A stretch of 64,000 nt of DNA from the NCBI GenBank assembly GCA_019058445.1, contig JAHPZA010000006.1, positions 1,164,943-1,228,942 of the forward strand. The letters are read 5' to 3'. Shown piece after piece: positions 4,369-49,978 of the stretch (the stretch's first letter is position 1; every line of letters begins with the position of its first letter). The stretch comes from Promethearchaeota archaeon. Lineage in GTDB: Archaea > Asgardarchaeota > Lokiarchaeia > Sigyniarchaeales > SOKP01. The notes beneath the pieces were generated by a model, which worked only from the letters and a program-made list of their open reading frames with translations, had not been told where the DNA came from and did no database searches. Position numbers and translations under genes: made by a program.

Positions 4369-6510
4369 TTAATTTTTGCCTTTTAACAATTCATCTGCGG
4401 TTAGAAATTGAGAGGACCGATACCTTTTTCGCGTTTTTGTTATATTCTTATCAATATGGTTTTGATTTAATATTGTGGGATGGTTAGTTGTTAAATTATT
4501 GGAAAAATCTATGAGTTCATATAAAGAATTATCTAATTCGCTTACAAAACGAGAAGGTTTAAGAAAGTTCATTCTTTTATAGGACTGTGTTGATTTTGGA
4601 GATATTAAGAACAACTCATCTCTTGCTCTGGTGACTGCTACATAAAAAATTCTTCTTTCTTCTTCAATATCTTGTTCCTCTTTTGTAATATATGTTGTTG
4701 GAAAGAGTTTTTCTGATAATGAAATGATAAACACAATATCCCATTCTAGTCCTTTGGCCTTGTGAATAGTAGATAATACTATCCGATTATCATCATCTTC
4801 CTTATGAGTTGTTTCTTTTACACTGTTTGATAATTCCGAGATATTTAAGTTTAAATGGTCTATAAAGCCACTAATTGATTTAAATTCGAGGGATAATTCA
4901 AAAACAGCATCAATATCTGCTAATCTCTCTTTAAAATTTTCAAAATTTTTTTGGATATATGGCTTTATTGACAATCTTATTTTCTGAATCACTAAAGAGG
5001 GGGTAGATTCAGAATTAAAACTTTTAAAAGATTTCAAGTAATTAATTAGATTAGTAAAACCCCGTTTTGAGAGTTTTATTTTATTTAACTCAGATTCGTA
5101 TAAATCAGATTTATTTAATTCTCTGATCGGATCTCTTAATTTTATAATTGTTTTAAAAATTTCCCGAGAAGAAACCTTTCCTATATTTGGAATAATTTTA
5201 AAGATGCGATTCCAAGACAACTCATCATAGGGATTAAAAATGATTCTTAAGTGAGCAAGTAAATCCTTGATATGGGCTTGCTCGAAGAAAGAGACTCCTG
5301 AACGGACTACAAATGGTATAGCATTGGCCTGAAGTTCTTTCTGTAAAATAATCGAATGGAAATTTGATCTATATAACACAGCTATTTTTGATAAATCAAT
5401 CCCCTCGTTCATATAATTTAAAATTTTTTGAACGATAAAACGTGCTTGTTCCCTTTCGTCGAAAATTACAACATATTTTGGTTTAACACTACTTTCCCTC
5501 ACCGTTTTCATAGTTTTTTGAAATTGAATTCTATTGTTTTTTATTGAATTATTAGCTAAATCTAATATTTCAGGGGTAGAACGATAATTGTATGTAATTT
5601 TGTGTTTAGTTATGTTTTTTAATTTTTCTCCAAAATTGAGGAGGTTTTTAAAATCAGCACCGCGAAAACTATATATGCTTTGTGCATCATCGCCAACAAC
5701 CATAATATTTTGATTAATTTGAGCAATTTTGAGAATAATTTCAGCTTGCATGAAATTGGTATCTTGATATTCATCAACTAAAATATGTTTGATTTTTTCT
5801 GCGATATTTTGAGCGATTTCTTTTTCATCAAGTAATCTATTCCATAAAACAAGTAAATCATTGAAATCAACCAAGTTATTCCTGATTTTACGTTCATTAT
5901 AGTTATTAAAAATCACTTCAAAATGAGTTATTAAGCTTTCTTTTAATAAATATGGATATTTCCATTTTAAAACTTGTTTAATAGTTCTATTTGTATTAAT
6001 CTTATATGATAATATTTTAAAACAACGCTTAGCGTTAGGGAAGTTCATTAATTTATAATTAGGGAGCGATTCTTCAATAGACAATTTCATCAAGGAGTAG
6101 GAATCAGTCTGATCAATAATGGTATATCTAGGCTTTAATCCAGCTAAATGAGTATATTTTCTAATAAACCTATTAGCTAAAGAATGAAAAGTTCCCCCCC
6201 ATATACCGTTAGGTTCTTCACCTAATAACGTTTTAACTCTTTCGAGCATTTCTTTTGCTGCTTTATTAGTGAAGGTAACGAGCATTATTTCTGAGGGTTG
6301 TACTCCCCGTTCAATTAATTTAGCTACGCTATAGGTAATAGTTCTTGTTTTTCCGGAACCAGCTCCTGCTATTACTATCATTGAGCCGTTAATATTGTTA
6401 ACAATTTTAAGTTGTTCCGGATTTAAATTGTTTTTAAATGAAACTTTATGGATAGTATGAGAAATGCTTTTATGGGATTTACTTTTATTCTGATTAGTGA
6501 ATTTCTCCAT
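4369..6510 (-). CDS. uvrD: UvrD/PcrA-family SF1 DNA helicase
   Basis: AGAGSGKT, TFTNKAA, VDEYQD, GDDAQSIYSFRGA, NYRS, STIHKAKGLEW, EERRIFYVAVTRA; ATG at 6510 lies just after the mcm stop. Confidence 0.93.
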   Translation of the reverse strand: MEKFTNQNKSKSHKSISHTIHKVSFKNNLNPEQLKIVNNINGSMIVIAGAGSGKTRTITYSVAKLIERGVQPSEIMLVTFTNKAAKEMLERVKTLLGEEPNGIWGGTFHSLANRFIRKYTHLAGLKPRYTIIDQTDSYSLMKLSIEESLPNYKLMNFPNAKRCFKILSYKINTNRTIKQVLKWKYPYLLKESLITHFEVIFNNYNERKIRNNLVDFNDLLVLWNRLLDEKEIAQNIAEKIKHILVDEYQDTNFMQAEIILKIAQINQNIMVVGDDAQSIYSFRGADFKNLLNFGEKLKNITKHKITYNYRSTPEILDLANNSIKNNRIQFQKTMKTVRESSVKPKYVVIFDEREQARFIVQKILNYMNEGIDLSKIAVLYRSNFHSIILQKELQANAIPFVVRSGVSFFEQAHIKDLLAHLRIIFNPYDELSWNRIFKIIPNIGKVSSREIFKTIIKLRDPIRELNKSDLYESELNKIKLSKRGFTNLINYLKSFKSFNSESTPSLVIQKIRLSIKPYIQKNFENFKERLADIDAVFELSLEFKSISGFIDHLNLNISELSNSVKETTHKEDDDNRIVLSTIHKAKGLEWDIVFIISLSEKLFPTTYITKEEQDIEEERRIFYVAVTRARDELFLISPKSTQSYKRMNFLKPSRFVSELDNSLYELIDFSNNLTTNHPTILNQNHIDKNITKTRKRYRSSQFLTADELLKGKN

Positions 6511-6514
6511 CTTA

Positions 6515-8653
6515 TTATTGATCTTGTTTACTGGTAAATTTAATTTCATTAGGCTTAGGTTCGTATAAGGTTCCTTCTTTTATAGCTTCCTCAATGGCAT
6601 TTTTAACGAAACCTTTCTCAATATTTTCATCTAATTCTATGACTTGTATTACGTTTTTTTTCTCAAGAGCTTTCCATTGATTTTCTTCGAAAAGTTCTTT
6701 TAAGCGATCATACACCCGTGTGAGTTTATTGGTTTTACTCCTTGGTTGACCCATAAGAATCATATCTACATCGAATTTCCCTGTCTCCTTGTCATAACCA
6801 GTGTCTTTCAAGAATCTTTTAAAAAGTTTGATTATTTCATCCACATCTTCTTTTAAAACTTTATCTCTTAGTGCCATTTTCGCATATGCTTCACTCATGC
6901 GAACTAATGCTTCGAGATTTCTGGCTAATATTGAAACAATTGCGTCCTCTTTTTTATATTGCCCTCTTAAATCTAAGTAAAATTGCTTGATTCGTTCTTT
7001 AGCTTCTTCACTTAATTTTGGAAAATAATTTTTTCTGGCATATTTAATATACTTAGTTAAAAAATCTGTACTAATTGGGGCCACCATTTTGTTGGATTTT
7101 TCGGAATCCTCTAAAAATTCTTCAGGACCCATCATAGCGCTCTGTAAGATGAATTCGGCCATTTGAGCATCATTCGCGGGATCTGGACGATCCATTACTT
7201 TAAAAATTAAATCAAACCGACTCAAAAGAGATGGCGGCATACGCGTATTTTCTGTAAACGATTTGTATTCATTGAATCTTCCAGTATATGGATTTGCAGC
7301 AGCGATAATTGCTGTTTGAGCTTTTAATGTGGCGACAATTCCTGCTTTTGCAATACTCACGGTTTGCTGCGCCATCGCTTCATGTAGTGCAGATCTATCT
7401 GCAACATCCATTTTGTCAAACTCATCTATGGAAGCAATTCCTCCATTGGCTAATACTATTGCTCCCGCTTCAAGATTCATTTGTCCTGTTTCAGTATCTT
7501 TAATAACTGCAGCAGTCAATCCCACTCCACTTGAACCCTTACCTGAAGTATATAACCCTCTTGGAGAGATTTCTACAGCAGATTTCAATATTTCCGACTT
7601 TCCCGTTCCAGGATCACCTACAAATAGTACATGAATATCTCCTCGTTTAAAGCTTCCGCCTGGTCGTGGTCTTCTTGTTCCTCCGAACATACTTAATGCA
7701 CATGCCATTTTAAGGTCATCTCTTCCAAAAATTGTAGGTGAAATTGATCTGGCAATTTTTTTTTGAATCATTGGTTCCTTTGATAGTTTTTTGATTTTTT
7801 TGATATCCTCCTTCGAAATATCAATATATTCATCACTTTTATCTTCTGGATCTATAAAATTTACGTCTACATACGTTTTAAACAAAGTTGAATTCAAGCC
7901 TTTTATTGATTGAGCCAGAACTGATTTAAATACACCCATAACATTAATTCTATCTCCAGGCTTTATTGTATCAACTAAATCATAAGTTAATATAGCTTGA
8001 ACAGATCGAGGAATTCTTCCTGGTGGTAGATCCTCAGGTACTTCTTGTATTGTAATGCTTTGCCAGTCGATAAATTGTGAATTTTTAGAGATGAGCCTAA
8101 AATCAGAGTGCGCCTTCGCTTTGCATCGTTTATTAGTGCAAAATTTGGGCCATCTCACTTTTGAAGTTAATTGAGGTATATTAATAATCGCTCCGCAAAG
8201 AATACATTCGAAGACAGCGGTAGTTAATTTTGGTCTAACAGTAGAAATTCTTACTAAAATCCCCTTGAACCACACTAACCTATCTATATTTTTCGATCGT
8301 AATCCTCTAATAGGAATTCCTAATGGGCTTTTTTCATCTTTCGTAGCAATCCTTACAAAATATTTTTGATTTGTTAATGTTCCTGATTGTAGTTTTATAA
8401 CGTTCTTATAGGCATCTATGGCATCTTCTAATAAAGATTCAGGATCATTTTTGAGCATTTCAGCAATTTGGGGATCAAATGAGAGGAGGTCTTCATATAA
8501 AATAATTAGAGCATTTCCTCCCTCGTCAATAATTTTATTAATTTGATCTTGATATTTGAACTCTCCTGGTTTTTCTTGAAATAAGCGATAAAAATCCTCA
8601 AACCTCTGAACTTTATGAATTGGTTGAGTAGGACTAGGTATGGGTTGAGTCAT
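6515..8653 (-). CDS. mcm: MCM replicative helicase
   Basis: Zn finger, GDPGTGKS, IDEFDKM, SRFD arginine finger, C-terminal winged helix. Confidence 0.97.
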   Translation of the reverse strand: MTQPIPSPTQPIHKVQRFEDFYRLFQEKPGEFKYQDQINKIIDEGGNALIILYEDLLSFDPQIAEMLKNDPESLLEDAIDAYKNVIKLQSGTLTNQKYFVRIATKDEKSPLGIPIRGLRSKNIDRLVWFKGILVRISTVRPKLTTAVFECILCGAIINIPQLTSKVRWPKFCTNKRCKAKAHSDFRLISKNSQFIDWQSITIQEVPEDLPPGRIPRSVQAILTYDLVDTIKPGDRINVMGVFKSVLAQSIKGLNSTLFKTYVDVNFIDPEDKSDEYIDISKEDIKKIKKLSKEPMIQKKIARSISPTIFGRDDLKMACALSMFGGTRRPRPGGSFKRGDIHVLFVGDPGTGKSEILKSAVEISPRGLYTSGKGSSGVGLTAAVIKDTETGQMNLEAGAIVLANGGIASIDEFDKMDVADRSALHEAMAQQTVSIAKAGIVATLKAQTAIIAAANPYTGRFNEYKSFTENTRMPPSLLSRFDLIFKVMDRPDPANDAQMAEFILQSAMMGPEEFLEDSEKSNKMVAPISTDFLTKYIKYARKNYFPKLSEEAKERIKQFYLDLRGQYKKEDAIVSILARNLEALVRMSEAYAKMALRDKVLKEDVDEIIKLFKRFLKDTGYDKETGKFDVDMILMGQPRSKTNKLTRVYDRLKELFEENQWKALEKKNVIQVIELDENIEKGFVKNAIEEAIKEGTLYEPKPNEIKFTSKQDQ

Positions 8654-42353: not shown

Positions 42354-43109
42354 TTAATCGCTATTAATATCATTATCTTTATTATCGTCGGAAGCAATAT
42401 TATCAAGGCCAAGTTGGGAAACCATGATTCTCTTCATTTCTTCTTTATTTTTAGGTAATCCAAACATTTCAGCATATTTATCTGTAGTAGTTAATTCATG
42501 AGATCTTCCTTTTTTAATAGCAAAAATTAAGTCATTATCAAGAAGATATTTAACATGTTCATAAGCTCCGCTCCCTCTTAGTTTAATAACTAAAGATTTA
42601 AGAATTGGCTGTTTTAATGCGATTACTGTTAAGGTTCTTAAGTATCTCTCGGCAATTGCCCCTCCTTTCGCAAATTTTGAAACTTTTTCAATAAATTCTG
42701 TTCTAAGAGCCATTTGGAAATCCTCACCAACCTTATTTATTACGAGAGCAGTGGATCGTTCTAGATACTCGAAAGCAAGTTCATTTATCAACTCTTCAAC
42801 TTCTTTTTTTGGAATCTCCAACCTTGTGTTTAATTCTTCAATACTTAAAGATCTACCCGAAACATAAAGAGAAGCTTCAATAAGATTTTTATGATAGTCT
42901 TTCACTTGTCTTGCAATCAGCTCTTTATCTGTTTCAACTGAATCCGATATAAGGCTTGTATTTTTATCATCGCTAATTTCGGTTTCATTAATTTCTTCAA
43001 TAGTTTCATCAGTTGTTTCCATACTTAGTTCATTAACCTCATCTTCTGGAGGTATTTCATTATCTTTCTTTTCAGAATCATCTTTTATTTCCTCATTAAA
43101 CTCATCCAT
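42354..43109 (-). CDS. scpB: SMC-Scp complex subunit ScpB (kite)
   Basis: IEASLYVSGRSL, TLTVIALKQPI, RGSGAYEHVK, TTDKYAEMFGL; acidic N-terminal tail. Confidence 0.92.
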   Translation of the reverse strand: MDEFNEEIKDDSEKKDNEIPPEDEVNELSMETTDETIEEINETEISDDKNTSLISDSVETDKELIARQVKDYHKNLIEASLYVSGRSLSIEELNTRLEIPKKEVEELINELAFEYLERSTALVINKVGEDFQMALRTEFIEKVSKFAKGGAIAERYLRTLTVIALKQPILKSLVIKLRGSGAYEHVKYLLDNDLIFAIKKGRSHELTTTDKYAEMFGLPKNKEEMKRIMVSQLGLDNIASDDNKDNDINSD

Positions 43110-43137
43110 ACACAATCATCCTCTCTTTTGAATTTTT

Positions 43138-44136
43138 TTATTTCATACTAATTGAGATATCTTTGAACTCATCTGCTTGAAAAAGAGTTAATTTATTTCC
43201 AGTACTTAAAAACATTAATGCTAAAAACATTCTTACAAATGCAAATTTCCTCCCGATAGTACTTTCTTCTTCATTTTTTATTATATGTAATAGATCAAAA
43301 AAACTAGAATCTTTATTATTTAAATTAATCGTAGCTTTTATTCGATTATACCAACTTTCATGTAATTCCTCAACAGTTTGTTCTTTTCCGCTTATATGTT
43401 TTAAGAGTTCTTTGGGTAATTTCGCTTGAGATAACCTTCTCAGACGTTTTTGCTTTTGTTCTTCTTGTCTTAAGCGTCTCCTCCTTAATTTTTCTTTCTT
43501 TTGCATGGTTTCAATAATTGCAGCTCTCATAGCCTCAAATAATTCATCTTTAGTTGCTATTTGCATTTTAGGGCTAATTGGTTGAGGTAATGACTTAGGA
43601 ATTGTTCTTGAATGACGTTGTCTCAATTTTTCGAGTTCTTCCATCTTTTGAATTTGTTCCTCCTCTCGAATTATGCTAGAGATTTTAAAATGGTGCAAAT
43701 TTGCTGCCGTTCTTAATGCTATTCCAGAAATCTTGTAATTTATGAGCTCTTCTTCAAGCATATGATCAAAAAATTTATCTACTAATGCTGAGAGATCATA
43801 AAATGCGACTTGAGAATCTTTAGCTAAGTCAAGATCCAGTAATACCCTATATTTTGGTTTTTGCCAAAACTTTGGTTCAGCCTTGTCCCTTTGTATAAGA
43901 GGGGATTCTTCATCCTCTTCTTCAAAACCAGCAATTAATTCCTCTTCTAATTCTTCTTCTTGGGTTCGATCTACGAAATCGGGACTAGTTACTACGCCTT
44001 TTACTAACTCAACTATATCCTTCTTTTTCGCTTTTGATGGAATTTTAATATTGTTTTTATTACAAAATTCTCTTAACTGCTTAACTGTCCATTTATTAAA
44101 ATCAGTTTTTTCATTGATTTTTTCTTGATCTGAAAT
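43138..44136 (-). CDS. scpA: Kleisin ScpA with N-terminal HeH/SAP-like module; inferred ATT start
   Basis: Frame is open for 125 codons upstream of the ATG at 43761, up to ATT at 44136 behind SD AAGGTGA; in-frame TGA three codons earlier; kleisin motifs DLSALVDKFF...ISGIALRTAA and FLALMFL...Q.DEF.DI; lies between smc and scpB. Confidence 0.85.
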   Translation of the reverse strand: MSDQEKINEKTDFNKWTVKQLREFCNKNNIKIPSKAKKKDIVELVKGVVTSPDFVDRTQEEELEEELIAGFEEEDEESPLIQRDKAEPKFWQKPKYRVLLDLDLAKDSQVAFYDLSALVDKFFDHMLEEELINYKISGIALRTAANLHHFKISSIIREEEQIQKMEELEKLRQRHSRTIPKSLPQPISPKMQIATKDELFEAMRAAIIETMQKKEKLRRRRLRQEEQKQKRLRRLSQAKLPKELLKHISGKEQTVEELHESWYNRIKATINLNNKDSSFFDLLHIIKNEEESTIGRKFAFVRMFLALMFLSTGNKLTLFQADEFKDISISMK

Positions 44137-44167
44137 AGTATCTCACCTTTTGCTTAAAATTTTTAGA

Positions 44168-47100
44168 TTAATTTTCCACTTTAGGAGGGACATCTTCTAA
44201 TTCCAACAATCTTTTCGCTTCTTCTTCTAAATCGACACTGAAAATATCTGTAATGCCCGATTGTTGCATAGAAACTCCGTAAATACGGTCTGCATTCACT
44301 ATATTTTCTTCTCTATGACTAATTACAAGGAATTGTGCCTGATCAGAGAATTCTTGTATTACAGTGCTAACGCGGTGAACATTCGGTCCATCAAGTGCCG
44401 CATCGATCTCATCCATTATATAAAATGGTGCGGGGTAAAATTCTTGGACGGCAAAGATAAAAGATAAAGCTACTAAGGTTTTCTCACCTCCGCTAAGAAT
44501 CTCCAATGAGGAGATCTTTTTTCCTCGAGGACGAGCTTCGATAGATATACCCCCTTCAAATGGTTTATCCGGTCTGTCAAGTATCATTTTAGCTGAGCCC
44601 CCAGGGGAGAGTTTCTGGAACACAGCACTAAACACTCTATTGATCTCATGATAAGCTGTCATAAATGTCCTTGTCTTTTCCAATTCTATCTTGTCTATCG
44701 CATCCAAAATAGACTTTCTTTCGCGCTGTATAGTCTGTCTGCGCATATCAATTTCATCGAATCTCTCCTTAACGGTATCATATTGTTCGATTGCTTTTAA
44801 ATTAACGGGCTCTAAGGCTCTTTTCTTTTTATTCGCAAGTGACATATCAGATTGTAATCCTTCCTCCGATAAATCCTCGGTTAAGGGGGGTAAGGTTCCA
44901 TAATCTTTAGATCTCTCGTATAGTGTTTCTATTTGATCTGCACAAATAATTTTTTTTGATTCATAATTATTCTTTTTAGAATTTTCCATAGAACGATCCG
45001 ATTTTAAATCAGTAATAACTTTTTGGTAATTTTTTTGTTTTTTCCATGATTCATCCTTTTCATTTATTAATTTATCAATTTCCTGTTGTTTCTCATCCTT
45101 TTTCTTAGTTTCTTCAATTAACTGATAATCAATTTTTTCTATTTCTTTTACTGTTAATTCTACTTGATTTTCAGTGTTTTTGATATCTTCATTATATATA
45201 ATGATTTGTTCTTCTCTTTCTTTATTTTTATGAATTTCATTTAGTTTTCCTTGGGTTTTTTGCAAGTTTTTATTAAATTTGTTTAAATTTTGTTGCGCTG
45301 TTTTTTGAGCCTCCAATTCTTTTTCTTTTTCTCCTCGAAAGGTATCAATAATTTTTTGGATTTCATCTATGTTTTTTTGAATTTCTTCAACTTCAGAATT
45401 AAAGGTTTGTATATTTTTATGACTCTCTTCAATATTTTTATTGGCATCCATGTTTTCCTTAGTTATTTCTTCGATGGAATTAATAATTCTCATAACATTA
45501 TCTAGTGCTCTTAGTTTATCCCTTATCTCTTCTAATTTTTTGTTTTCTTCATCAATTTCTTTTTGTATGTTTTCAATAATTTCCCAGAATTTTTCTTTAT
45601 TTCCCGCAAGATTTTGAATTTCTTTATCTAAGGAGGTTAAATCTAATTCTACTTTATTTATACTCCCTTCTGTGAGAAGGATTTGAGCTTTTTTCTCCTC
45701 ATTATTTTTATTTAAATTATTTATGCTATTGTCTAATTCATTAATATTTTCATATAAATTTTGAATCCCCTGAAGCTCCTGAAGTTTTTCTTGAATATTA
45801 TCATACTCCTTTTGAGCTTTATCAATCTCATCTTGAATCTCAGATATCTCTTTCCAATAATTATCTTTAATATTTTTTAATTCATTTATATCATTATTAA
45901 TTTGTTCGAGATCACTTCCTTTTTCATTTATGCTGGCATTTCTCTCATTAATTTCGAGGGTATATTTTTCAATCCTCTCATTGATCTCCTTAATTCTTTT
46001 ATCAACCTCCTCCAGTCTTTTGTTTGAGATGGTAAGATTCTCGGTATCATGTGTTTTTTTAAGATTAATTTCCGTTAAATTTTTCTCAACCTCAGTTAAA
46101 TCATCCTCTTGAGTTTTAATGCTACTAGAAATTTCTTCCATTTGTTTGTAAAGTTCTTGAGATTTTGACATGGTTAGTTTTCTTAGGGAGATATGGACAT
46201 TTTCTAATATTTCCATTAAATCCATAACAAAAGCATCAAAATTGGAGGTCGATTCATGTACTGCCACATCAGCAGATTCTTTAACTTTACTAATAAGGTG
46301 TGTTATTGTGGAGTCCGCATTATCTGTAAATAAAGTTAACGTTTGTAATATCGAGTCAAGCATGTTTGACATTTCAGCCATTTCTTCACTCTCACTACTA
46401 ACGCTCTCCATAGTTTTCATTATATCAATAATATCTAACACGAATTTTTTAAAATCTTCGGCAGAAGTTTCAATAGCTTCAGCATTAGACTGTTGTATAT
46501 TGGCCTTAATAGATTCTACTGATACGTTTATATTTTGAGTGAGCATGTTTAAAATTTGAAGTATTCCGGTTACATCGTCTTTACTTTTATCATACTCTTC
46601 CTCTGAATTTTCTATCTTTTTTAAAAGAGCTTCTTTTTCTTTTGTAAGCTCATCTAAACGTCTTTGGATATTCTCTTTTTTAATGATAAATGTCTCTGAA
46701 TCTTTCTCAGATTTTGAAATATTAGTATTTAAGCTACTTACACTTAAATCTAAATTACGTTTCTCGCGCTCTAAATTAGTTAATTCTTTCTTAAATATTT
46801 TTAATTCAGTATTCATATTAGAAATCTTGCCTTGATTATCAATAATCTCGGCATCAATAGCCTCTTTTTTTAAATTTAGTAACTCTAAATTTTGTTCATT
46901 CTTTCGATAAGCAGAATCTTCATCTTTGGATTTCTTTTTTAAATCGCTTAAGTTTTTAAGGATATTTTCCTTTTCATGTAGGAGAGCCTTTACAATTTCC
47001 TCTATTTCTTTACCCTTGCTCAATTCCTCGATCTTTTGGATAGTTCTTTCTTTTTTTTGGTTTGCCTTTTTAATACTTTCATTATTCATCTTAATTTCAG

Positions 47101-48622
47101 TAGTTAATGAAGATAATGTCGATTTTAAATCAGTTAACTTAGAGTTTAAAGCAGTTTTTTTGGTTTGAACCAAATTAATATCATTTTCCAGATTTCTCTG
47201 TTTCAGATTTTCATCTGAGATTTTAACTTTAAGCTGCTCAATTTTTGTTTTAATTTCATTTTCAATATTTATAGTAGCTTTTCTTGCTTCTTCTATACTT
47301 TCATGATCTCCTTTTAATGATTCTAATTCAACCTCTAATTTTTCTTTTTTAATTTCATTCTTTTTTATATTATCTTTAAGCACCTTAATTTTTGATTCAT
47401 TAGATGAAATATTTTGTTTCACTTTTGATATCTCTGAGTTGAACTTAGATTTTTCATCTTCATTACTTTTAATTTTATTATCTAGTTCTGCTTGATTTTG
47501 TTGTCGTTTTTCAATTTCCTTTTTTGCCTCTTCAATTCTATTTTCTATTTCAGCGATATCTTTCGTTACATCTTCTATTAGGGAGTCAAATGTCTGACCC
47601 TCTTCGAGTTTCATTAAAAGTTTTTCTAATTGTTCTTTATCAATAGTTAATTTCTCAATTGACTTTTTTGCAATGCTCAAGGTTGTCTGGTTTGATGATA
47701 ATTCAGTTTTTGTTTGGGTGATAGCTTCATTTAACTCTTCTCTTTCTTTTTCTTTAACATTTATGTTACTTTGTATATTATCCATAACCAGGGATTCTTG
47801 TTTTAATAGTTCTTCTTGTCTCGTAATTTTTTCTTCAAATTCTTCCAATACTTTATTAACATCTTCAATTTTCCTATCTAATTCTTCTTCTTCTTTCTGA
47901 TATTGTGCAATTTTTAAAGCAAGTAACTGAGCATTATAAAAATTAATTTTATCATCAAGTTCTTTCCATGCTAAGGCGTCATTTTTCTCTTTTTCAACTT
48001 TTTTTAGTTGAGTAGATACCTCCTTAAAGATTGCTTCGAATTGTCCCAAATCTCGTTCAGCTTTTTCTAACTCTTTCAAGGTAGAATCTTTCATTTCGTC
48101 ATATTTTTGGAGGCCAATTAATTCTTCGATAAATTTACGTCTATCCTCTGAATTCATATGAGTTAATTCAACTATCTTCCCTTGTAATACAAATTGATTG
48201 CTACCATCAGGATCAACATTTGCAGTTGCCAACGCATTAAGAATTTGTTGTCTTGTTGCCTTTTTTTCATTCATTTTATATCCCCCACCTCCGCCCCTTT
48301 TAATGATTCTGGTAATTGTAAAATCCCCATCACTACCACCTGGAAAAATTCCATCTGAATTGTCAAAATGTATAGTAACCGAAGCGCGATTAGAAGGGTT
48401 CTTTCCTCTTGAACCTGCAAATATTAAATCTTCTAAACTTTTTGCACGCATTGTTTTTTTACTTAATCTCCCTAATGCAAAACATAAGGCATCAATAATG
48501 TTGGATTTTCCAGCACCATTCGGTCCTACTATGCAGGTAAACCCACTTGAAAGTTTAATTGTAACCGTCCGATCTCCAAAGCTTTTAAACCCACTCATGG
48601 ACACTTTTTTAATATAGGTCAG
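44168..48622 (-). CDS. smc: SMC ATPase with non-canonical hinge region; inferred CTG start
   Basis: (M)TYIKKVSMSGFKSF behind SD GAGGAG; GPNGAGKSN, QG Q-loop, PVNLKAI, LSGGEK, DEIDAALD, ISH. Confidence 0.93.
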   Translation of the reverse strand: MTYIKKVSMSGFKSFGDRTVTIKLSSGFTCIVGPNGAGKSNIIDALCFALGRLSKKTMRAKSLEDLIFAGSRGKNPSNRASVTIHFDNSDGIFPGGSDGDFTITRIIKRGGGGGYKMNEKKATRQQILNALATANVDPDGSNQFVLQGKIVELTHMNSEDRRKFIEELIGLQKYDEMKDSTLKELEKAERDLGQFEAIFKEVSTQLKKVEKEKNDALAWKELDDKINFYNAQLLALKIAQYQKEEEELDRKIEDVNKVLEEFEEKITRQEELLKQESLVMDNIQSNINVKEKEREELNEAITQTKTELSSNQTTLSIAKKSIEKLTIDKEQLEKLLMKLEEGQTFDSLIEDVTKDIAEIENRIEEAKKEIEKRQQNQAELDNKIKSNEDEKSKFNSEISKVKQNISSNESKIKVLKDNIKKNEIKKEKLEVELESLKGDHESIEEARKATINIENEIKTKIEQLKVKISDENLKQRNLENDINLVQTKKTALNSKLTDLKSTLSSLTTEIKMNNESIKKANQKKERTIQKIEELSKGKEIEEIVKALLHEKENILKNLSDLKKKSKDEDSAYRKNEQNLELLNLKKEAIDAEIIDNQGKISNMNTELKIFKKELTNLEREKRNLDLSVSSLNTNISKSEKDSETFIIKKENIQRRLDELTKEKEALLKKIENSEEEYDKSKDDVTGILQILNMLTQNINVSVESIKANIQQSNAEAIETSAEDFKKFVLDIIDIMKTMESVSSESEEMAEMSNMLDSILQTLTLFTDNADSTITHLISKVKESADVAVHESTSNFDAFVMDLMEILENVHISLRKLTMSKSQELYKQMEEISSSIKTQEDDLTEVEKNLTEINLKKTHDTENLTISNKRLEEVDKRIKEINERIEKYTLEINERNASINEKGSDLEQINNDINELKNIKDNYWKEISEIQDEIDKAQKEYDNIQEKLQELQGIQNLYENINELDNSINNLNKNNEEKKAQILLTEGSINKVELDLTSLDKEIQNLAGNKEKFWEIIENIQKEIDEENKKLEEIRDKLRALDNVMRIINSIEEITKENMDANKNIEESHKNIQTFNSEVEEIQKNIDEIQKIIDTFRGEKEKELEAQKTAQQNLNKFNKNLQKTQGKLNEIHKNKEREEQIIIYNEDIKNTENQVELTVKEIEKIDYQLIEETKKKDEKQQEIDKLINEKDESWKKQKNYQKVITDLKSDRSMENSKKNNYESKKIICADQIETLYERSKDYGTLPPLTEDLSEEGLQSDMSLANKKKRALEPVNLKAIEQYDTVKERFDEIDMRRQTIQRERKSILDAIDKIELEKTRTFMTAYHEINRVFSAVFQKLSPGGSAKMILDRPDKPFEGGISIEARPRGKKISSLEILSGGEKTLVALSFIFAVQEFYPAPFYIMDEIDAALDGPNVHRVSTVIQEFSDQAQFLVISHREENIVNADRIYGVSMQQSGITDIFSVDLEEEAKRLLELEDVPPKVEN

Positions 48623-48784
48623 AATTAGATCTCCTCTTATTCCATAGTTATTAAAAATATAGAAAAATGCAAGTTTAAATCTTTTTTTTTTAATTCGAAA
48701 ATAAGTTAATTTTCAGTTACTTAATTTTTTTAATAATAAAAACCTTTAATCTCATCAAAAAAAAAAATAATTGGAATTTTTTAG

Positions 48785-49978
48785 TTATATTTGCCCAAAA
48801 ACGGCATCAACCATTGCTTTCAGCTGAAATGGGTTTATTGTCATAAAGAAACAATCATATGTTAAAGGGTTTTTAGATAAAAATTTTATATTCGTAGTAA
48901 GTCCTTTTCTTGAGGGGCTTAATATCCCAACTCTTAAGGCTTTTTGAATGATATTTTTAAATTCATTTGAATCTTTTTCATAGTCTAAAGATTCACATGA
49001 TATATCATATAGCTCTTGTAAATTATTTAAATCAATATAAAAGTGCGATTTTGTTGCAAATGTATTTGAGAGATTATCTAAAAAAATAATAGTTAAAAGA
49101 TCTTCCTCAGAAATATAATTAAGCATATTAAATTCATCAGATATTTGAAAAGAATCAAATTGGTTCTGAAATATTTCTAGCATTTTAAAATGTTCTATGG
49201 AGTCTTGATTTTTTAAAAAGGGATAAATTTCTCTGAGCATATCAATTCCTTTTCCAGGAACAGGTACATAATGCTCAAAAATAAGATCTGTAATATATTG
49301 AATCAATTCCTTATCAACTTCATGTGAAAATGTCAAAGACGCTCTTGTTTGTAATATTAAGTTCAATTCCTTGTAGGTAAAATAATTGAGCTTTCTTTTT
49401 ATATCAAATTCAGATAAATAATCCAAAGTCGATGATCTTAAAATCTTATTTACCGTCGAAATTACGGTAATATTCATTTCTTTTCCTAAATATAACATCT
49501 TCTTAAAAAAATCAGGTTTTATATTCTCTATGTTATTAAATATAAGGAAGAGATTTTGATCTATTTTTTTGCTTGCTAATTTAAAAATATTCCATAACTG
49601 AGAAATATTTGAGTTCAGAAATGAATTAAGATTGAAATTGAGGTTAGGCAATTTATTTAACTCAGTTAATAAAGAAAAGATTAATTCTTCAAGATTCTTC
49701 TCCTTACAGTCTATAATAATTTTCTGAAAAGGTAATGAATTGCCGTTATTTGTAATTAAATCTTTTACAACTTTATTGATAATTACTTTTTTACCGATCC
49801 CTTCAATCCCTTGATATAAGATATTAAGAGGAAACTCATCTGTTATTGAATCATTTAAAAGGGAATATAACGATTTTTCTTCTTTCTTTCTAAATAGAAG
49901 ATTAGGGGGTATATAATTTGGATCAAATATTGCTTTTGGCCCTATATAGTCATTATTTATCTTCGATTTACTAATCAT
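48785..49978 (-). CDS. Divergent Orc1/Cdc6-family protein with degenerate ATPase motifs
   Basis: FDPNYIPPNLLFRKKE N-terminal signature; Walker A GIEGIGKK; Walker B FNNIE; FT.KEL..IL..RA; C-terminal winged-helix-sized region. Confidence 0.78.
   Translation of the reverse strand: MISKSKINNDYIGPKAIFDPNYIPPNLLFRKKEEKSLYSLLNDSITDEFPLNILYQGIEGIGKKVIINKVVKDLITNNGNSLPFQKIIIDCKEKNLEELIFSLLTELNKLPNLNFNLNSFLNSNISQLWNIFKLASKKIDQNLFLIFNNIENIKPDFFKKMLYLGKEMNITVISTVNKILRSSTLDYLSEFDIKRKLNYFTYKELNLILQTRASLTFSHEVDKELIQYITDLIFEHYVPVPGKGIDMLREIYPFLKNQDSIEHFKMLEIFQNQFDSFQISDEFNMLNYISEEDLLTIIFLDNLSNTFATKSHFYIDLNNLQELYDISCESLDYEKDSNEFKNIIQKALRVGILSPSRKGLTTNIKFLSKNPLTYDCFFMTINPFQLKAMVDAVFGQI

Follow-up and report, generated by a model that had tools for sequence, protein, structure and literature searches.

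A long Smc without a canonical hinge in Lokiarchaeia carries a conserved helical hairpin of two homologous repeats at its tip

The hinge counts as a defining and mechanistically important part of SMC proteins, responsible for dimerisation and DNA binding and perhaps serving as a gate. In Bacillus subtilis Smc, the arm spans 344 residues, about 47 nm, and a variant in which the hinge is swapped for the unrelated zinc hook of Rad50 is functional (PMC5344682). A natural SMC-family clade with heads and a coiled coil, and with neither hinge nor zinc hook, is described from marine Actinobacteria (PMC12153180). According to a preprint on the evolution of SMC complexes, a third kite exists in some Asgard archaea, and probably an additional duplication of the entire complex as well; hinge loss is not mentioned there, and we found no description of a hinge-less Asgard Smc in the literature. 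Here we analysed a 64,000-nucleotide stretch from a Promethearchaeota archaeon (GTDB: Lokiarchaeia; Sigyniarchaeales; SOKP01; assembly GCA_019058445.1, contig JAHPZA010000006.1, positions 1,164,943 to 1,228,942), hereafter called the window, which encodes an unusually long Smc-type protein (the long Smc) on its minus strand. An earlier note on this DNA, made from the letters alone, had proposed that the protein pairs canonical ATPase heads with an apex that holds two tandem helical repeats in place of a hinge. Nucleotide positions below are those of the window, and residues of the apex are numbered on the 1478-residue translation from the GTG at 48604. The features that concern the apex are as follows.

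44168..48622, minus strand: the long hinge-less smc gene, stop codon included (Pfam SMC_N, 128 bits)
46100..46612, minus strand: apex module, residues 665-835, a two-repeat helical hairpin at the hinge position (from alignments, AlphaFold2 and conservation)
46418..46564, minus strand: core of repeat 1, residues 681-729, ascending tip helix (from BLASTP and hhalign)
46382..46399, minus strand: predicted hairpin turn, residues 736-741 (DSSP of the AlphaFold2 model, loop at model residues 137-142)
46205..46351, minus strand: core of repeat 2, residues 752-800, descending tip helix (from BLASTP and hhalign)

The absence of a canonical hinge and of a zinc hook, both claimed in the earlier note, held up. 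A Pfam scan gave no SMC_hinge match (PF06470) at E<=1, either with the whole protein or with residues 600-900, and no Cys occurs between residues 42 and 1220, which leaves no CxxC zinc hook. Residues 593-895 contain one Gly, no Pro and no Cys. The apex is also acidic, as the note had said, with a net charge of -17 over residues 660-830. Two repeats are indeed present: they start at residues 681 (window 46564) and 752 (window 46351), 71 residues apart, share an alignable core of 50-60 residues, and end in FKKFV.. and FDAFV.. segments at residues 718-729 and 789-800. The interval singled out in the note, 46150-46590, covers residues 672-818. By BLASTP the repeats are 28% identical, with 60% positives, over 50 ungapped residues (E 4e-8), and comparison of the two repeat-family profiles by hhalign gave a probability of 98.5% (E 1.9e-15). 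Database searches put no name to the region. Pfam and NCBIfam scans of the centre returned chance coiled-coil matches only; a profile search of the module against PDB sequences found no relative, the best match being a designed helical protein at E 4e-4; and an ESM Atlas feature search gave unnamed clusters alone, with values of 0.89-0.90 that chance matches also reach.

We modelled residues 600-900 with AlphaFold2 from a 46-sequence alignment. The model (mean predicted local distance difference test score, pLDDT, of 87) consists of two uninterrupted helices, model residues 2-136 and 143-300, with a single loop of six residues between them, and has no beta structure. Neither a canonical nor a MukB-like hinge fold was predicted. 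The model also changes how the repeats are to be understood: the duplication is real, but the copies are not separate domains; they form the two strands of one antiparallel hairpin. The turn sits in a variable acidic linker (residues 730-751), the only indel-rich and poorly conserved stretch of the module. Foldseek matched the tip model to long hairpins only, namely chemoreceptor cytoplasmic domains, the MukB elbow, the dynein stalk and SMC arm fragments, the best being PDB 2ch7 (E 1.4e-5, template modelling (TM) score 0.36, 14% identity). The sole MukB match was its coiled-coil elbow (6h2x), in a type of fold search that cannot exclude a family. Counted from the coordinates, each arm strand has ~550 residues, which corresponds to ~80 nm if the coiled coil is continuous.

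The apex module is conserved to nearly the level of the heads. Across 99 full-length family members, mean column conservation is 0.86-0.88 in the repeats, against 0.72-0.75 in the arms and 0.92-0.94 in the heads (0.92 in the N-terminal and 0.94 in the C-terminal half). The repeats are also less charged than the arms (charged fraction 0.26-0.30 versus 0.40-0.42) and more hydrophobic (0.34 versus 0.27); the corresponding ranges for the heads are 0.25-0.28 and 0.29-0.35. The Ser/Asn/Gln-rich polar middle of each repeat is strictly conserved. Overall, the module is 66-87% identical over more than 170 proteins of ~1475-1487 residues, none of which has PF06470. When the best heptad register was assigned in sliding windows, the tip had 4.8 hydrophobic positions outside a/d per 28 residues, versus 2.1-2.6 in the arms, and 2.4 hydrophobic e/g positions versus 0.7-1.3. 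Such a second seam would be solvent-exposed in a two-helix hairpin and thus implies packing against further helices.

The module occurs outside Smc as well. An exhaustive HMMER search with it, over 1.8 billion representatives, recovered 34 clusters only, among them divergent Smc proteins and a non-SMC family whose members include DSAG12_01461 of Promethearchaeum syntrophicum (921 residues) and WKT22_04228 of Lokiarchaeum ossiferum. A profile built from Smc proteins only matched the N-terminal 290 residues of the DSAG12_01461 family (hhalign 99%, E 6.7e-18), and a second copy of the module lies at about residues 320-470 (hhalign 96%, E 1e-9); the remainder of these proteins is a beta-rich region followed by a Lys-rich tail. 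In a scan of the phylum (module profile and PF06470, 301 genomes), this non-SMC family was seen in the sister family of the window's family, within the same Lokiarchaeial order, and nowhere else; it is not in the genome of the window. The neighbours of the gene at a sister-family locus (4997-8122, minus strand) gave no functional clue.

An AlphaFold2 model of residues 1-520 of the DSAG12_01461 family (pLDDT 88, predicted TM score 0.60) has turns at about 130, 257, 383 and 456; the first three helices are ~120-130 residues each, and the last two together are about equal to one of them. Foldseek gave no useful match for this model. In an exhaustive VIA search its best matches were single-chain four-helix bundles, aligned over residues ~62-458 and so spanning both modules. 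The top match was 6egc (Z 15.0, root-mean-square deviation 2.8 A over 146 residues), and further matches were ABLE designs, the McpS sensor, and FAT, vinculin and catenin bundles. Read from these matched ranges, the packing suggests that the tandem hairpins lie side by side as a four-helix bundle with both turns at the same end. That Smc and a second family with a Lys-rich tail have the module in common hints that this helical unit may serve more broadly, in ways not yet described.

Taken together, these results lead us to favour the reading that the gene encodes a genuine Smc-ScpAB-type ATPase in which two tip hairpins pair to form a four-helix bundle, and this bundle serves as dimer interface in place of the hinge; we consider this probable, with room for doubt. 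The tip arose by duplication of a 50-60-residue helix, the copies becoming the up and down strands of one hairpin, and this all-helical tip of ~170 residues takes the place of the globular hinge. Two hairpins, one from each Smc, would zip side by side in parallel into a four-helix bundle. The bundle would supply the constitutive dimerisation that is usual for a hinge, and a closed Smc-kleisin ring or rod would still be possible, with the arms leaving in parallel. Contacts with DNA of the hinge type are probably absent at the tip, since its acidity makes them unlikely; we speculate that DNA is contacted by another part of the complex, one candidate being the N-terminus of the dedicated kleisin, whether HeH-like or Lys-rich. 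The earlier note had left two options, a different dimerisation module or open-ended arms. The former appears better supported, if indirectly, because of the near-head conservation, the roughly twofold excess of hydrophobic residues outside a/d over the arms, and the predicted bundle of tandem copies.

Several points weigh against replacement of the hinge by a tip bundle. The argument for the four-helix bundle comes from a paralogous family and from a model whose packing was read from matched ranges, and a VIA Z of 15 is common among helical bundles, so that it speaks to geometry only and says nothing on ancestry. In the model of the long Smc itself, pLDDT at the tip is 64-85, below that of the arms. 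No RNA run was found for the region. Finally, B. subtilis Smc that has lost its hinge still dimerises through arm contacts (PMC5526789), so a dedicated dimeriser at the tip is not strictly required.

This last observation also favours a tip that is simply a monomeric cap, with the Smc pair held by heads, kleisin and arm-arm contacts and the arms open-ended; the self-sufficient hairpin of the AlphaFold2 monomer would suit such a cap. We think it quite unlikely, because it leaves the near-head conservation of the tip and its doubled non-core hydrophobics unexplained. Somewhat less improbable, though still unlikely in our judgement, is dimerisation in the antiparallel sense, tip to tip as in RecN or an open Rad50 hook, which would give extended dimers of ~160 nm, or links from one complex to another that bridge distant DNA, and not a closed rod. 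The second seam and the high conservation would suit any four-helix bundle, and the direct-repeat symmetry of the hairpin permits both orientations; however, the turns at ~130 and ~383 in the tandem-module model fall at the same end of helices of equal length, and its matches span both modules, which corresponds to the parallel arrangement. The dedicated kleisin and kite likewise suggest an ordinary ring or rod.

The conserved seam might instead bind another protein and not a second Smc, making the tip a docking site. The strictly conserved polar middle of the repeats is in line with this, and the presence of the module in a non-SMC family with a Lys-rich tail makes hetero-pairing of modules conceivable. 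Yet that family was found in the sister family alone and is absent from this genome, where the Smc tip is equally conserved, and no conserved extra gene lies beside smc except the upstream Orc1/Cdc6-like gene; we regard docking as very unlikely. A doubtful extension of the bundle idea, to which we give little weight, makes the two-repeat hairpin a portable zipper that joins chromosome proteins, linking the Smc tips of separate complexes or, in the sister family, Smc to DSAG12_01461-type proteins. Last, there might be nothing unusual here: a degenerate hinge, a mis-assembly or a mis-called gene. Beyond the general caution due to metagenome-assembled genomes nothing speaks for an artefact, and we give it almost no credence; it is excluded by more than 170 independent homologues of the same architecture, by indel-free contigs of other studies, and by an all-helical fold without similarity to a hinge.

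In the scan of the phylum, the module profile matched 60 of the 68 genomes of the window's family, all 7 of the sister family, and two genomes elsewhere. Both stray matches are probably binning errors: one (G193) lies on an 8.6-kb contig and its protein is head-identical to a sister-family sequence, and for the other (G205) the contigs are short and the bin is 72% complete. The hinge-less long Smc forms a paralogue lineage of its own, found almost exclusively in one order of Lokiarchaeia. A canonical Smc of ~1200 residues, which matches the hinge family strongly (E about 1e-30 to 1e-35), is encoded as well in thirteen genomes of the order; three of these belong to the window's genus, and another is a genome of the sister family in a single contig of 4.36 Mb (G210). 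On TIGR02169, the canonical copy of G210 scores 828 bits in one stretch, and its long copy 633 bits in four stretches. In the four genomes with both systems that we checked, each Smc has its own ScpB adjacent. The long Smc is followed by an ScpA of 338-370 residues and an ScpB of 297-339 residues, and the canonical Smc is followed directly by an ScpB-like gene of 190-204 residues, with no ScpA between; judging from this gene order, the canonical Smc must either share a kleisin or have one encoded at another site.

Only weak hinge matches occur in the two largest genera (22 and 28 genomes), as in the genome of the window. As no match in these two genera is stronger than a weak SMC5/6-like one, the long Smc appears to serve alone in both. 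In the genome of the window, the only PF06470 match (34.6 bits, weak but genuine) is in a divergent SMC-like gene, P0004, of 1146 residues, elsewhere on the same contig (contig 6, 621771-625211, minus strand). Three genes without Pfam matches (421, 215 and 172 residues) flank P0004 and could be its kleisin and kite partners. A search for a canonical smc, by tblastn with a same-genus canonical Smc, its ScpB and its neighbours against the 4.6-Mb assembly (92.6% complete), matched only the long Smc and P0004. The genes that flank the same-genus canonical smc upstream have orthologues on contig 9, and the stretch beside these contains other genes and no gap. The hinge-less Smc is the only condensin-type Smc found in this genome.

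To place the long Smc we built a head-domain tree of 41 sequences and 369 columns (IQ-TREE, LG+C20+F+G4), rooted on the divergent class and drawn from Asgard archaea alone. The long Smc proteins all fall into a single clade (support 100/100) with a stem of 0.6 substitutions per site; it lies inside the canonical Asgard Smc radiation, with neighbours supported at 58-66% only. The long Smc of the window falls on the side of canonical Smc, and P0004 groups with the divergent class, which is presumably the SMC5/6-related archaeal SMC of PMC8665677, in a tree without eukaryotic SMC5/6. Forcing the long clade together with the canonical copies of the order cost 2.7 log-likelihood units (p-AU 0.14). 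The tree is compatible with a duplication within or near the order, followed by fast divergence.

The remaining parts of the locus are those expected of an Smc-ScpAB system, as the earlier note had read them.

48095..48622, minus strand: ATPase head, N-terminal half, with Walker A GPNGAGKS and the Q-loop region (SMC_N match, residues 3-178)
44171..44737, minus strand: ATPase head, C-terminal half, with the LSGGEKT signature, Walker B MDEIDAALD and the H-loop (ISHR) (second SMC_N stretch)
43138..44142, minus strand: scpA (kleisin), an open frame of 334 codons (SMC_ScpA, 21.9-23.7 bits against a cut-off of 24.6)
42354..43115, minus strand: scpB (kite), with an acidic N-terminal extension (SMC_ScpB, 107.7 bits; TIGR00281, 93.5 bits)

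Walker A, Q-loop, signature, Walker B and H-loop are all present in the translation, with SMC_N at 128 bits, and scpA and scpB both lie directly downstream, the former just below its Pfam cut-off. In the NCBIfam scan, Smc models give the heads much higher scores than Rad50 or RecN models do. The whole protein reaches 586 bits on TIGR02168, above the cut-off of 567 but in 4 separate stretches, and 618 bits in 4 stretches on TIGR02169, where the cut-off is 729. Metagenome contigs of a separate study span the region without indels.

From its GTG, the smc open reading frame runs over 44168..48604 on the minus strand and encodes 1478 residues. The frame is open upstream of this first GTG and reads ATT-CTG-ACC-TAT-ATT-AAA behind a GGAG Shine-Dalgarno-like motif. 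Homologues have an ATG at the MTYIK position, which aligns with CTG-ACC-TAT-ATT-AAA here. The start is therefore probably the CTG at 48622-48620, because homologues read M-T-Y-I-K there; the product would have 1484 residues, the modal length in the long Smc family. An alternative start is the ATT at 48625, likewise behind GGAG. Neither smc (48620-48625) nor scpA (44134-44142) has an ATG, GTG or TTG where its conserved N-terminal sequence starts. The first ATG of scpA is at 43761, with 125 conserved codons upstream of it, and immediately before the scpA frame opens there is a TGA within a GGTGA motif. The N-terminus of ScpA (43762-44142) carries a helix-extension-helix motif that resembles HeH/Ish1/SAP (Pfam Ish1 30.5 bits, cut-off 26.6; HeH 23.8 bits). 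The same motif is found in a same-genus ScpA homologue; in the kleisin of the sister family, the N-terminus is rich in Lys instead.

Directly upstream of the long smc lies a divergent Orc1/Cdc6-family gene (48785-49978, minus strand; TIGR02928 41.8 bits, far below the cut-off). It keeps this position in another genus (56% identity), even with scpAB not adjacent. In two further genera of the family, scpAB do not come after the long smc; one of these two has an ScpA-like match on the same contig, at a distance of ~35 kb. A 122-codon open reading frame at 46170-46538 on the plus strand runs antisense to the sequence that codes for the tip; in such AT-rich DNA it has most likely arisen by chance.

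Eukaryotes have no closer known prokaryotic relatives than Asgard archaea, and a large group of these archaea has an Smc-kleisin-kite complex that is free of a hinge. This appears to be the only condensin-type complex in most of the genomes sampled. Nature thus provides a test of whether an SMC motor can do without a hinge, and the lineage allows a comparison among its own members, as some keep both systems and others have the hinge-less one alone. What the hinge is needed for also becomes testable, because the cultured Promethearchaeum syntrophicum is close to a genome with the hinge-less system. If the tips also zip separate complexes together, the outcome would be a higher-order SMC network tethered at the tips in place of isolated rings, a mode not known elsewhere.

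How does the long Smc compare with known systems? The hinge-less clade of marine Actinobacteria (PMC12153180) differs in being bacterial and known from ocean metagenomes, and the part of the report available to us mentions no duplicated tip, arm lengthening or dedicated ScpAB. Nothing in that part suggests a common origin of the tips, and the two are set beside each other by description and not by sequence. With the Rad50/SbcC zinc hook and the RecN tip, the long Smc shares an SMC-superfamily ATPase that dimerises (in the long Smc, as we propose) at the end of its coiled coil without a hinge; it differs in lacking a CxxC and an Mre11 or SbcD partner, its partners being ScpA and ScpB. In chemoreceptors, the highly conserved tip of the cytoplasmic hairpin pairs in parallel with a second hairpin into a four-helix bundle. 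The long antiparallel helical hairpin of that domain (PDB 2ch7) resembles the tip of the long Smc in architecture only: there is no sequence relationship, identity is ~14%, and no MCPsignal Pfam match was found. Engineered B. subtilis Smc(Zh), which carries the Pyrococcus furiosus Rad50 hook (PMC5344682), likewise ends a continuous coiled coil in a small, unrelated dimerisation element, and the hinge fold is not essential in it; the long Smc, by contrast, is natural, has no CxxC or zinc site, and has a helical bundle as its predicted interface. The best-scoring family remains canonical Smc-ScpAB, as in B. subtilis and Pyrococcus (TIGR02168/TIGR02169), with which the long Smc shares heads with all motifs, a long antiparallel coiled coil and an adjacent kleisin and kite. 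It departs from that family in its missing SMC_hinge, in arms ~1.6 times longer, in an acidic tip that forms a helical hairpin, and in its place in a separate clade supported at 100/100.

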